Shown here: positions 1,398 to 60,179 of the stretch, piece by piece | Position numbering within the stretch: the first letter of the stretch is position 1 | Layout of the letters: every line of letters begins with the position of its first letter | From: a bacterium | GTDB taxonomy: Bacteria; SAR324; NAC60-12 | Length of the DNA: 64,000 nucleotides | Reading direction: 5' to 3' | NCBI GenBank assembly: GCA_965205865.1 | Contig: CBDBHR010000030.1 | Location: 1,248,001-1,312,000 of the forward strand | Translations under genes and position numbers: made by a program | The notes under the pieces: generated by a model | Databases searched by the model: none | What the model was told of the DNA's origin: nothing | The model's input: the letters and a program-made list of their open reading frames with translations, nothing else

Positions 1398-1537
1398 GTT
1401 TTGGGTGGTATTCAGGATACAGATCTTATGGAGGATGGGAGAACAGATGCTCTTTCTGTTTGACCTAGTCCAGTTGTTTCTCCAGGTAGTAACTGATGTT
1501 ACGTGCACGATTTTTGCAGTTATGCGTCTCATCGAGT

Positions 1538-1566
1538 TGTCATTCCTGGCGAAGACCAGGAATCCA
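1538..1566 (+). repeat. REP-like hairpin, left inverted repeat of the GIY-YIG element
   Basis: tgtcattcctggcgaagaccaggaatcca, the exact reverse complement of 1886-1914. Confidence 0.95.
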
Positions 1567-1588
1567 CTTTGCTAGCGATCCAGGGTGA

Positions 1589-1873
1589 CTAAAACGTTTC
1601 ATATAAATCTATCCATTGAGGATTATTTTTCTCAATGAGTTCGATTTTCCAAGCTCGTTTCCATTTCTTACGTTGTTTTTCTCTCCGGAGAGCAGCTGTT
1701 ACCTCTGAAGTGGTCTCATGGTATATCAATTGATGTACTTGGTATTTACTGGTAAATCCTTCTATGAGATTGTTTTTATGTTCATAAACTCTTCTAAGAA
1801 GATCATTGGTCACTCCAATATATAAAGTGCCAATTCTTTTACTTGCTAAGATATAAACGTAGTAGGTTTTCAT
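1589..1873 (-). CDS. small stand-alone GIY-YIG nuclease (UPF0213/YhbQ-like)
   Basis: MKTYYVYILAS...LYIGVTNDLLRRVYEHK...REKQ..KWKRAWKIELIE..NPQW.DL; ATG at 1873 preceded by an AGGAG RBS; 94 aa. Confidence 0.92.
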   Translation of the reverse strand: MKTYYVYILASKRIGTLYIGVTNDLLRRVYEHKNNLIEGFTSKYQVHQLIYHETTSEVTAALRREKQRKKWKRAWKIELIEKNNPQWIDLYETF

Positions 1874-1885
1874 GATGGCGACTCC

Positions 1886-1914
1886 TGGATTCCTGGTCTT
1901 CGCCAGGAATGACA
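1886..1914 (-). repeat. REP-like hairpin, right inverted repeat of the GIY-YIG element
   Basis: tggattcctggtcttcgccaggaatgaca. Confidence 0.95.
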
Positions 1915-1978
1915 CACTTGTGGGGAAGCGTATTCATGGAAACCGCTGAATGCAAAAAATATTCATGTAACATGACGT

Positions 1979-2988: not shown

Positions 2989-3223
2989 AATAAGTTCCGA
3001 GCACCAAGCTCCCAATCACAAGTTCTACCTCCTTATATTATCTCGACTTCAGGGAGAGATCCCTAAGATTCCTCGTTCCCAATTCCCCGTTCCGGGAACG
3101 GAACGGCAATGGGGAATTTGGAAAATCATCGACGCCTGAGTGCGTCGGTTTATGGTTCATTGCCCAATCCTGGAGCCAATGAATCGGTTTTTTGATCACT
3201 TGAAAATGAAGGAGACCCAATGT

Positions 3224-3391
3224 GTAGAGCAATCGTCGAGAACATGCTTTCTGGAACGAAAGCAGGTTTTAAAGCAACCCGCAATCTTGTTTTTAATCAA
3301 AAAGCAAAAAGGAGCACCATGAACCGTCAAAAAAGTAGAGAAATCGTCGAGAACGTGCTTTCGGGAATCAAAGCAGGTTTTAAATCAATCC
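3224..3391 (+). repeat. 57-bp imperfect direct repeat upstream of the SBP gene
   Basis: gtagagcaatcgtcgagaacatgc...gcaggttttaaagcaaccc (3224-3280) and gtagagaaatcgtcgagaacgtgc...gcaggttttaaatcaatcc (3335-3391). Confidence 0.9.
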
Positions 3392-3423
3392 TTAATTATG
3401 AACATCCATTCGAAAGGAAAAAG

Positions 3424-5193
3424 ATGTTTAATCAAAGAAGCAGCTCAAAATTGAGCGCAACCCTGCTGGCTCTCATCCTGGGAGCAAGCGTCTTCATGGC
3501 TGGCCAGGTCTGGGCAGCCAAGTATGTGACGGACCCCACCAACGGCAAGATAGTGACCGCTCCGGAATACGGCGGGACATTCACCTATGCCATGAATAAC
3601 GAACCTACCGCAGTTGACGTCTGGTTCCACCACGGGGCGGTACCTGTCATCAGTGGTGTTTTAGAGAAGCTAGGCACCGTGAACTGGGGAATAGATAGGG
3701 CCGAATATAACTTCGTGGGTCTGGTCCAGCCTGAATTTGCCACGACAGGGCAGCTGGCGGAAAGCTGGGAGATGCCCGACGACAGAACCATTGTCGTCAA
3801 AGTCCGCCAAGGCGTTCACTGGCATAATAAGGCACCGATGATCGGTCGGGAGCTGACTGCCAAGGATATCGAATACAACTTTCACCGCTTGATGGGTCTG
3901 GGCAAGTTTGCCGAAGCCGGACCTACCAACATTACCCAGGTTCTCAGAACTGTGTCATTCGAATCGATAACGGCCACCGACAAATGGACGGTTGTTTTTA
4001 AGCTGAAGAAGCCACACCTCGGTGCGCTGATGGGTATCCTCGAGGACTGGATTGCTTATATGTACCCCCCCGAGGTATTCGAGCAATACGGCGACGCTCA
4101 GGATTGGAGGAACCTGGTCGGTACCGGGCCCTTTATGCTGACTGACTGGGTCGAGGGCAGCTCTATGACCTGGGACAAGAATCCTGACTACTGGGGCTAC
4201 GACGAAAAATACTCGCAGAACCGGCTGCCCTATGTTGACCAGATAAGGGCCCTGACTATGCCCGAAGTGGCAACACAACGGGCGGGACTGCGCTCGGGTA
4301 AGCTTGATGGCTTGTATGGCGGGACTGCGATAAAGTCTGTCGACGCGGCAGAGAGCCTTGAGCGGGCCAACCCCGAAATCAAGCTGTGGAAGAGGGTCAC
4401 TGCTTCGGTCTTTAGTACTGGTCTTAACATCAATAAGCCGCCCTTTAACGACATCAGGGTGCGCAAGGCAATGCAGATGGCACTGGACCTTGAGACAATT
4501 AACAGTGCCTTCTTTAAGGGTCATGGAGATACGACACCTCACGGGCAGGTAGGGGATGCTGTCCCCGGGTATTTCATCCCATTTGAAGAGTGGCCCGCCG
4601 AGCTCAAGAAAGTCTATGACTATAACCCGGAAGGGGCAGAAGCCTTGATTGATGCGGCTGGGTATCCGCGCGGCGCCGACGGCATTAGATTCAAGACCAA
4701 GTTGATGCACAACGTGCACAAGGATTTGAACTATTACCAATTACTCGCTGCATACTGGAATAAGATTGGCATTGACGTTGAGATTGATTTTCCGCCTATT
4801 GCTACCTGGGTGGCTAGAAGAACCTCTCGGGATTTCGAAATGATCGAACACGAAATGGCCTATGGGAGTCTGTCTGATCCTCTCAATCCTGTGAACCGCT
4901 TTACCAACGTTCCGTGGAACAGCGCCGCAGTGGAGGACCCGGTTTATGACGCCATGTTTGAAGCCGCCGGAGCCGCTACCACCATCGAGGAGCTGCAGAG
5001 GCTGGTTAAAGAGCTGGATATGTACGCGATAGAGAGGCACTGGACCGTATGGAGTCCTATGAATCCAAATTTTGACGCCTTCCAGCCGTGGATCAAAGGT
5101 TACGACGGTGAATTCACGTTGTCATACATTCATAGACATTTCGTCCTCGCCCGCCTCTGGATTGACCAGGAACTGAAGGACAGGACCCAGTAA
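3424..5193 (+). CDS. ABC transporter substrate-binding protein, family 5 (DppA/OppA-like)
   Basis: Signal peptide after MFNQ, PEYGGT, LAESWE, GTGPF, NPDYW, PFNDIRVRKA; ATG 3424 chosen over the upstream ORF extension. Confidence 0.92.
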   Translation: MFNQRSSSKLSATLLALILGASVFMAGQVWAAKYVTDPTNGKIVTAPEYGGTFTYAMNNEPTAVDVWFHHGAVPVISGVLEKLGTVNWGIDRAEYNFVGLVQPEFATTGQLAESWEMPDDRTIVVKVRQGVHWHNKAPMIGRELTAKDIEYNFHRLMGLGKFAEAGPTNITQVLRTVSFESITATDKWTVVFKLKKPHLGALMGILEDWIAYMYPPEVFEQYGDAQDWRNLVGTGPFMLTDWVEGSSMTWDKNPDYWGYDEKYSQNRLPYVDQIRALTMPEVATQRAGLRSGKLDGLYGGTAIKSVDAAESLERANPEIKLWKRVTASVFSTGLNINKPPFNDIRVRKAMQMALDLETINSAFFKGHGDTTPHGQVGDAVPGYFIPFEEWPAELKKVYDYNPEGAEALIDAAGYPRGADGIRFKTKLMHNVHKDLNYYQLLAAYWNKIGIDVEIDFPPIATWVARRTSRDFEMIEHEMAYGSLSDPLNPVNRFTNVPWNSAAVEDPVYDAMFEAAGAATTIEELQRLVKELDMYAIERHWTVWSPMNPNFDAFQPWIKGYDGEFTLSYIHRHFVLARLWIDQELKDRTQ

Positions 5194-5300: not shown

Positions 5301-5378
5301 TGTCATTCCGGGCGAAGACCCGGAATCCGGGGGACTTACCCTAGAACTCCCAGATCCCGGATCAAGTCCGGGATGACA
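5301..5378. repeat. REP doublet (gene-less), probably inside a larger element at ~5243-5414
   Basis: tgtcattccgggcgaagacccggaatcc - spacer - gatcccggatcaagtccgggatgaca; right arm plus ~35 bp of flank shared with 8226-8287. Confidence 0.9.
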
Positions 5379-8159: not shown

Positions 8160-8251
8160 TGTCATTCCTGGCTTGCCCAGGAATCCACCGGGCTGGCGTT
8201 CCAGGGGGCTTACCGACTTTTCCTAGATCCCGGATCAAGTCCGGGATGACA
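8160..8251. repeat. REP doublet (gene-less)
   Basis: tgtcattcctggcttgcccaggaatcca - spacer - gatcccggatcaagtccgggatgaca. Confidence 0.9.
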
Positions 8252-48352: not shown

Positions 48353-48510
48353 TACCTTGTGAAACTAATATATTATTCTTTGTCATCCTCGCGAAAGCGG
48401 GGATCCAGGGGATAGAGCTTAAAACTCTGGATTCCTGCTTCCGCAGGAATGACATTGCTAAAATCACTATACTTTTCATAGACATCAAAACATTATTAAC
48501 AAAGCACTAG
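48349..48510. mobile_element. CTAG-bounded MITE carrying a REP doublet (48381-48454)
   Basis: Ends ctagtaccttgt / acaaagcactag; internal tgtcatcctcgcgaaagcggggatcca...tggattcctgcttccgcaggaatgaca; AT-rich within a GC-rich operon. Confidence 0.75.
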
Positions 48511-59947: not shown

Positions 59948-60179
59948 ACCTGAGTTCGACATAAATCTTCAATAATATTAGTATCCTAGTGTATATGTCA
60001 TCCTCGCGAAACTTGTCCCCGCGAAAGCGGGGAGCGAGGATCCGGATTTCAGTCTGGCTGCATACCTCTGGATTCCTTCCCCGTGTACGCGGGGATCTCG
60101 CAGGAATGACAAGGTTTCTCTAAGATATGAAAACTCCATAACATATTGAATTTATTAAATTCTTATCTAGAACTCAGAT
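59948..60179. mobile_element. 232-bp MITE copy 1 (REP doublet cargo)
   Basis: acctgagttcga...tagaactcagat; flanking duplication TGAATA. Confidence 0.93.

Follow-up and report, generated by a model that had tools for sequence, protein, structure and literature searches.

The analysed window is a stretch of 64,000 nucleotides from a bacterium of the SAR324 lineage (GenBank assembly GCA_965205865.1, contig CBDBHR010000030.1, positions 1,248,001 to 1,312,000), and the subject of this analysis is a short GIY-YIG nuclease gene near its start, bracketed by two hairpin arms and enclosed in a repeated unit of 484 bp. The open reading frame (ORF) is located at 1589–1873 on the minus strand, stop codon included, encodes 94 aa, and is referred to below as the ssn gene. 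Both arms are 29 nt long (1538–1566 and 1886–1914) and are 100% complementary to each other. The upstream arm (1886–1914, minus strand) carries its motif on the sense strand of the gene, and the downstream arm (1538–1566, plus strand) carries it on the opposite strand, in convergent geometry. A Shine-Dalgarno-like GGAG (1882–1885, minus strand) follows directly on the upstream arm, which ends at 1886, and stands 8 nt ahead of the ATG, while 22 nt separate the stop codon from the downstream arm. The first-pass annotation, made by a model from the letters alone, had described a GIY-YIG gene between perfect 29-bp inverted hairpin arms, one abutting the ribosome-binding site and the other 22 bp past the stop; the bracketed gene was confirmed by the inverted-repeat search and by the ORF with its Pfam match, and the two distances were read directly from the sequence.

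The arm hairpins are GTCAT-tagged, with conserved GTC and C tags outside the stem (ATTCCTGGCG at this locus), and both arms fit the degenerate pattern published for the recognition hairpins of Ssn nucleases (SRM, HGTCWY..RNCYNB) at 1538–1567 (+) and 1885–1914 (−). Within the window, the full 29-nt arm was found at these two loci only, with a relative carrying 3 mismatches at 5301, and in 0 of 100 shuffles. Folded alone as single-stranded DNA (ssDNA), each arm gave a stem of 8–9 bp; the folding energies were −6.6 to −7.8 kcal/mol and the z-scores modest (−1.8 to −2.4). No promoter-like site was found in a promoter scan upstream of the ssn gene, and a candidate picked by eye, TTGCAT-N17-TACGCT, was discarded as it lay under the scan threshold.

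The protein matched the Pfam family GIY-YIG (PF01541) at E 1.1e-13 over residues 4–77, with no second domain above the cut-off. In a BLASTP comparison with a 94-aa ORF of Neisseria gonorrhoeae, 58% identity was obtained over 86 aa without gaps (E 2e-37). The gonococcal sequences were two 2.17-Mb PLSDB records, NZ_CP119140.1 and NZ_CP119142.1, which are filed as plasmids though chromosome-sized and are almost without annotation. When the window protein was searched against both by tblastn, E-values of 1e-26 to 2e-26 were returned, below the threshold of E < 1e-10 used by Chenal et al. The gonococcal ORF carries Y6, Y17, and E64, the residues mutated in that study, and has NTS repeats on either side; from these features and its length it was taken as the putative orthologue of SsnA, the record itself holding no annotation of the ORF. 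Window residues Y7, Y18, and E65 align to the gonococcal Y6, Y17, and E64. In a set of 95 homologues of <80% identity, Y7, Y18, G20, R28, and E65 were invariant (95/95), and all five are present in the window copy, so the predicted catalytic Tyr/Tyr/Glu is intact. The SRM pattern itself was matched 140 times genome-wide, against 17–24 times in five Markov-2 simulations. Taken together, the gene most likely encodes a member of the Ssn family, predicted to be a single-domain GIY-YIG site-specific ssDNA endonuclease, with the arms as its cognate SRM (NTS-like) hairpins. A GIY-YIG homing endonuclease of the I-TevI type, in which the nuclease is fused to a DNA-binding domain and which usually resides in introns or phages, was considered and rejected: the protein has 94 aa and no second domain, scored 18 bits on TIGR01453 (cut-off 56 bits), and matched only one of 50,697 phage records, at 39% identity. 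When solved structures were searched by sequence, the sole match was the UPF0213 protein 1zg2 (E 0.05).

The Ssn family (CDD model cd10448) was described by Chenal et al. (Nat Commun 2025; PMC11893778) as site-specific nucleases of 94 aa that act on ssDNA and are encoded by genes with NTS/SRM hairpins on their flanks. The Neisseria NTS is defined there as CGTCATTCCCGCGMAVGCGGGAATCYRG, and the SRM pattern is its degenerate form for relatives; at least one SRM was reported near 71% of SsnA homologues, and SRMs on both sides of 42%. Four purified homologues bound the hairpin only when it was single-stranded and only on one of the strands, cutting a few nucleotides upstream of it; cleavage was also reported when the motif halves were on two separate oligonucleotides, and double-stranded DNA (dsDNA) is not cut by the family enzyme (PMC11893778). 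The authors liken NTS-ssnA-NTS to an insertion sequence (IS) and put forward the RAYT/REP analogy as a hypothesis. The first-pass annotation had been right in proposing the GIY-YIG protein as the hairpin-recognising partner of GTCAT repeats; the partnership of nuclease and flanking hairpins is already in print and is not a discovery in itself. The words paralog, pseudogene, and "multiple copies" are absent from the main text of PMC11893778, and its Supplementary Data 4 appears to record presence or absence only. No follow-up literature on Ssn/NTS mobility was found. Packaging of an Ssn module in an IS-type shell, as set out below, appears to be unpublished.

Compared with the gonococcal SsnA/NTS system, both proteins have 94 aa, a single GIY-YIG domain, and the catalytic Tyr/Tyr/Glu, and both genes are flanked by GTCAT-palindrome-C hairpins, the SRM pattern being enriched in the genome of the window. 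The stem differs, ATTCCTGGCG at the window locus and ATTCCCGCG in Neisseria, and the window module is multi-copy, lies inside IS-type inverted repeats with target duplications, and is decaying. One cellular role seen for the system in Neisseria is the restriction of incoming ssDNA.

The linkage between gene and hairpins extends to homologues from many phyla. The flanks of 80 homologous loci (57–80% identity; Omnitrophota, Zixibacteria, Chloroflexota, Patescibacteria, Alphaproteobacteria, and others) were scanned over 150 bp with a strict definition (the SRM pattern) and a loose one (GTC, a stem of ≥7 bp, a loop of 3–11 nt, then C). By the strict definition, hairpins were found upstream at 29 loci, downstream at 27, on both sides at 15, and convergent on both sides at 12, at 2.44 per kb within 150 bp vs 0.044 per kb beyond 400 bp. 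With the loose definition, an upstream hairpin was present at 63 loci and a downstream one at 64; hairpins lay on both sides at 56 loci, in convergent geometry at 53 of them, and the densities were 6.57 per kb vs 0.11 per kb. Hairpin density beside the homologous genes was approximately 58-fold that more than 400 bp away. The two arms of the same locus resembled each other more (0.85) than arms of different loci did (0.73), a difference reached in 0 of 2000 permutations. The check proposed in the first-pass annotation, whether homologues are flanked by inverted GTCAT hairpins, was positive, with convergent GTC-tagged hairpins on both sides at 53 of 80 loci under the loose definition.

When the locus was compared with its own genome by blastn, the repeated unit proved larger than arms and gene and extended over 484 bp (1493–1976, minus strand). 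Eight full copies with common ends were found at 92–100% identity, together with truncated or internally deleted ones. The ends of the unit, GTCATGTTACGTGTATATTTTTTGCA and the reverse complement of CTGATGTTACGTGCACGATTTTTGCA, were defined by the core CTGATGTTAC/GTCATGTTAC together with the alignment, and the ends of this enclosing shell are designated by the sequence CTGATGTTACGTG. The outer inverted repeats (1496–1518 and 1951–1973) are imperfect, at 78% complementarity, and are kept in all full copies; the gene-distal terminal repeat (1493–1518, plus strand) reads CTGATGTTACGTGCACGATTTTTGCA, and the gene-proximal one (1951–1976) reads GTCATGTTACATGAATATTTTTTGCA on the minus strand. Exact AT-rich flanking duplications of 7–8 bp were found by script at 7 of 10 elements (TTATTCA twice, TTAAATAA, TAAATAA, TTCATAA, TGAATAA, and TTTCTAA), or at 8 of 11 when the C3 copy, read by eye (ATAATAA), is included. 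The only ORF with a family match inside the unit is ssn, and no transposase is encoded within. The unit was accordingly described as a non-autonomous element resembling a MITE (a miniature transposable element with inverted repeats) and carrying an ssn module. With MITEs and other derivatives of the IS4 superfamily it shares 26-nt inverted repeats, 5'-CT ends, 7–8-bp duplications, AT-rich targets, multiple copies, and the lack of an internal transposase, and it differs from them in carrying a complete foreign module, a nuclease with two recognition hairpins.

A tblastn search of the genome with the ssn protein gave 22 matches. Nine span residues 1–94 at 74–100% identity, three of these with stops or frameshifts; of the others, one covers residues 7–94, one is a distinct paralogue at 57%, and the rest are fragments. 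Two derivatives of the unit have lost the gene: one looks like the product of a deletion between AGTCGCC and AGTCACC, the direct repeats of 7 nt around the ORF, and the other measures 185 bp and has a hybrid hairpin as well as its own duplication. The ORF is also bracketed by ATCCAGG/CCTGGAT inverted repeats, and several fragments of the unit break exactly at AGTCACC (C30:606156, C4:61351). As a separate observation, a second MITE of approximately 95 bp (TGAAGAAAAC...TTTACATGAAG) is inserted in the ssn unit, within the GTTACG of one or the other terminal repeat, at 12 of 33 cassette ends, with GTTAC(C)G duplicated on both sides; it occurs in the genome for example at C3:28212-28304 and C24:21965-22057.

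No larger element with the ends of the unit was found in the assembly. Among metagenome contigs, the exact terminal-repeat pattern gave 0 matches, and a degenerate one gave a single match, in contig L129, with 25 of 26 bases identical to the gene-distal repeat. There, the terminal repeat lies 12 nt from the stop codon of an ORF for a DDE transposase of 318 aa, and AT-rich DNA adjoins. The transposase scored 273 bits on NCBIfam NF049921 (named IS701 family; cut-off 250 bits) and has the Y-2-R-3-E-6-K motif. Elements of the ISPepr1 subgroup of IS4 have 5'-CT ends, duplications of 7–8 bp, and AT-rich targets, according to the table of De Palmenaer et al. 2008 (PMC2266710), and the shell was called IS4-superfamily because its end features fit ISPepr1. 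From the structure of the ends and the L129 match, we infer that the unit was mobilised in trans by a DDE transposase.

A look-alike of a larger IS (CTGCTGTTACGTGTCCCC...) was rejected, having turned out to be a separate repeat of 69 copies. This hairpin repeat contains CTGCTGTTACGTGTCCCCTAATTTTGCGTA, occurs for example at C23:136982 and C25:44015, and has a core resembling the ssn-unit end CTGnTGTTACGTG. Its inverted pairs bracket passengers: GST and glyoxalase genes lie within one pair, and a DDE_Tnp_1_4 transposase, an EEP nuclease, and a GNAT gene within another.

The history of the copies was followed by comparison with a genome of the same genus in one contig (G001). A single inner hairpin-gene-hairpin copy is present there at 88% nucleotide identity; the match ends at the arms, and there is no shell. 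The closest ssn copy in G001 (C1:2541235-2541516, locus L106) has a TAA at codon 5, and dozens of solo arms of the ssn type are kept in that genome, some in tandem arrays near 4220430-4220849. In a survey of the phylum, 10 of 88 genomes had a match at E ≤ 1e-10, with 16 in the genome of the window and 1–2 in every other. For the selection test, seven copies without frameshift were kept, and the two frameshifted copies, the truncated copies, and the fragments were dropped. Compared with their own consensus, the seven copies had 41 non-synonymous and 11 synonymous changes (pN/pS 0.93), and the consensus compared with G001 gave pN/pS 0.26; the gene was thus under selection before the burst of copies, which are now drifting.

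Relative to the consensus, the window copy carries N14I, V50I, Y52H, and L68R. Among the 95 homologues, N occupies position 14 in 82, Y or F occupies position 52 in 93, and L, M, or I occupies position 68 in 94. The copy therefore keeps its predicted catalytic residues and has three non-conservative changes (N14I, Y52H, and L68R) at conserved positions. The first-pass annotation had cautioned that REKQRK in this protein might mark a decaying copy, a caveat borne out by L68R at a conserved position and by the neutral pN/pS of 0.93.

A second ssn paralogue was observed as a single copy in the genome of the window (C30:870856-871131). It is 57% identical, and its arms (GTCATTGCGG...CCGCAATCCA) are different ones that contain a nested hairpin. 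The G001 counterpart (C1:3293836-3294111) is 53% identical to the query and has an open frame.

These results are probably best explained by an Ssn family member with cognate SRM arms whose module sits in an IS4-superfamily-type shell, was multiplied in the manner of a MITE by a DDE transposase in trans, and is now drifting. By analogy with the purified SsnA enzymes, the protein would bind the hairpin on ssDNA only, on the strand reading GTC-palindrome-C, and would cleave a few nucleotides to the 5' side of the motif by means of Mg2+, the GIY/YIG tyrosines, and the glutamate. The hairpin-gene-hairpin module would have become enclosed in the 484-bp shell with its IS4-superfamily terminal inverted repeats, after which the whole unit may have multiplied through a DDE transposase supplied in trans, each insertion producing an AT-rich duplication of 7–8 bp. 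The transposase would since have disappeared from what is found in the assembly, leaving the copies to drift neutrally, and the approximately 280 other GTC hairpins of the genome, mostly convergent doublets, may represent the wider SRM population of the nuclease family. The window copy thus most likely spread as the passenger of a DDE transposase, and not via its own nuclease. The earlier suggestion of autonomy is unsupported at this locus, the multiplied unit having terminal inverted repeats and 7–8-bp duplications typical of a DDE transposase.

Several results weigh against this explanation. Contig L129 carries one end only of the IS and is the sole match of one degenerate pattern. Its transposase is called IS701 family by NCBIfam, and the classical IS701 duplication is given as 4 bp, not 7–8 bp, in PMC2266710. 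No cognate transposase turned up in the window's genome (assembly 91.9% complete) or in G001, searched with the L129 protein and the family model. The window copy of the unit is without a target duplication; an unrelated 177-bp repeat (1977–2153), of which at least 12 other copies exist in the genome at 96–99% identity, abuts the unit and probably removed the duplication on its side. No empty site was recovered from public contigs or from G001. Contigs of four public runs enter the unit end at 1517–1532 from a unique flank, with no joint skipping 1490–1976. In G001, the genes flanking the window copy are not adjacent; the C23 copy has syntenic flanks there that lack the unit, with intergenic DNA too diverged for a clean empty site; and the flanks of the C3 and C30:970k copies are not colinear. 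The gonococcal repeats are oriented oppositely to the convergent window arms, with the minus strand upstream and the plus strand downstream. Co-variation between protein and arm sequence, another check proposed in the first-pass annotation, was present but weak, at a Mantel r of 0.16 reached by 24 of 999 permutations (46 loci with both arms and an open frame).

The hairpins outside the unit were surveyed by a structural scan with a loop limit of 9 nt, which gave 282 GTC-hairpin-C elements in the genome vs 26 in one simulated genome. The main stems were ATTCCTGG (88, the ssn arm), ATTCCTGC (44), ATCCTCGC (39), ATCCCGGA (16), and ATTCCGGG (15). Neighbouring hairpins within 120 bp formed 62 convergent, 7 divergent, and 31 tandem pairs. 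The window holds three gene-less convergent SRM doublets found by the scan: at 5302–5377 (stems ATTCCGGG / ATCCCGGA, 25-nt spacer), 8161–8250 (ATTCCTGG / ATCCCGGA, 40-nt spacer), and 48382–48453 (ATCCTCGC / ATTCCTGC, 24-nt spacer). A variant doublet at 59998–60110, with a nested small hairpin in the loop of each arm, was read by eye and was undetected under the loop limit. The first-pass annotation had placed the same arm geometry at 5301–5378, 8160–8251, and 48381–48454 and inside three MITEs; short-spacer convergent doublets were seen at all three intervals. The 74-bp doublet at 48381–48454 is the common unit of 13 blastn matches in at least three flank contexts. Many doublets have conserved flanks and therefore lie inside larger repeat units. 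The genome also has tandem arrays, made up of solo arms repeated every 44 bp or of whole doublets with periods of 182 bp and 166 bp, at C28:58339-58751, C30:1022216-1022836, and C30:419833-420232.

This hairpin population bears on the idea of the first-pass annotation that the GIY-YIG nuclease itself mobilises a RAYT-independent, REPIN-like system by nicking ssDNA hairpins, with the doublets as non-autonomous forms, an explanation that we regard as unlikely. It would account for the dominance of convergent pairs within 120 bp, the geometry seen around the gene, for the recurrence of the 74-bp doublet in different flanks, and for a gene-less version of the ssn unit at C28:49277-49461, and the family enzyme does cut beside such hairpins on ssDNA, the authors themselves raising the IS/RAYT analogy (PMC11893778). 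The ends of the unit are, however, of IS type with 7–8-bp duplications, a structure not accounted for by an enzyme that nicks but transfers no strand, and the gene-less form resembles a deletion between AGTCGCC and AGTCACC around the ORF. Many hairpins are kept in G001 though its closest ssn copy is interrupted at codon 5 (the second paralogue is open there), many doublets belong to the larger repeat units, and the ssn copies evolve neutrally.

The window module shares with RAYT/REPIN systems a small nuclease gene between hairpin repeats that it recognises, recognition on ssDNA, and repeats that are mostly inverted doublets. The enzymes differ, GIY-YIG at the window locus and HUH (Y1) in RAYTs, which places the window enzyme outside the HUH class. 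RAYTs are typically single-copy, in contrast to the approximately ten copies of the ssn gene in its genome. By analogy, the enzyme would share with the TnpA of IS200/IS605 the recognition of a hairpin on one strand of ssDNA and a cut a short distance from it. To our knowledge, IS200/IS605 elements are without terminal inverted repeats and without target duplication, whereas the ssn unit has both.

A broader version, in which Ssn and its hairpins are truly a mobile RAYT-independent REPIN-like system, nicking drives the copying of doublets and the homing of the gene into gene-less ones, and the shell is only a second vehicle, is in our judgement quite unlikely. On the sense strand, the shell ends read GTC-ATGTTACGTG ... 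CACGTAACAT-C, resembling an SRM split by a 460-nt loop, and because the ends mimic a split SRM, the nuclease might also nick at the left border of the shell. The "giant SRM" idea for the outer ends is kept only as part of this broader version: the tags are present, but the stem is unlike that of the arms, 3 of 9 left ends are CTG or CTC instead of GTC, and the fold pairs the arms mutually. In that fold of the whole unit (1493–1976, minus strand) as ssDNA, the two 29-nt arms pair with each other in a long stem, with a minimum free energy of −70.7 kcal/mol, compared with −41.9 in shuffled sequences (z −7.2); in the centroid structure the outer repeats are paired as well.

Homing by repair, in which Ssn would cut the hairpins of gene-less doublets or shells and recombinational repair would copy the gene from a filled copy, seems very unlikely to us. 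In its favour, filled and gene-less versions of the shell coexist, short direct repeats and ATCCAGG/CCTGGAT inverted repeats surround the ORF, and several fragments break exactly at AGTCACC. The gene-less shells number 2 against 8 full copies, however, and both look derived, one through its hybrid hairpin and the other through the direct-repeat deletion; the full copies have their own target duplications outside the shell, and therefore shell and gene arrived together; and the family enzyme does not cut dsDNA (PMC11893778). A reading of the hairpins as common REP-like terminators or stabilisers of mRNA, placed at the gene by coincidence, is extremely improbable: the arms are intergenic and one lies just past the stop codon in a terminator position, but hairpin density rises approximately 58-fold beside homologous genes of many phyla (80 loci), the GTC and C tags, which lie outside the stem, are conserved, neither arm is followed by a T-run or was called in a terminator scan, and direct binding and cleavage have been reported for family members (PMC11893778).

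What is new is the IS-type shell, through which the Ssn module became multi-copy cargo. Whether NTS-ssnA-NTS is mobile was left as a hypothesis by the Ssn authors (PMC11893778); mobility at the present locus is real and apparently borrowed from a DDE transposase, a result that speaks against a RAYT-like model in its simplest form. The locus is a concrete case of Ssn module travel as IS-shell cargo, with approximately ten copies, clean target duplications, and decay. It also provides material for enzymology, namely a consensus enzyme that can be reconstructed, its cognate hairpin (stem ATTCCTGGCG), and several natural variants, in a family of interest as an ssDNA tool.

Two further features were noted in the window beside the unit. 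A 657-aa ORF at 3220–5193 has dozens of paralogous matches in G001 at 68–90% nucleotide identity and belongs to a large gene family. At 2147–2421, position 2147 is followed directly by 2418 in the contigs of all four public runs, with 270 bases skipped, at least three copies of a repeat matching 2150–2423 are present in G001 at 92–93% identity, and the segment is probably another inserted repeat.

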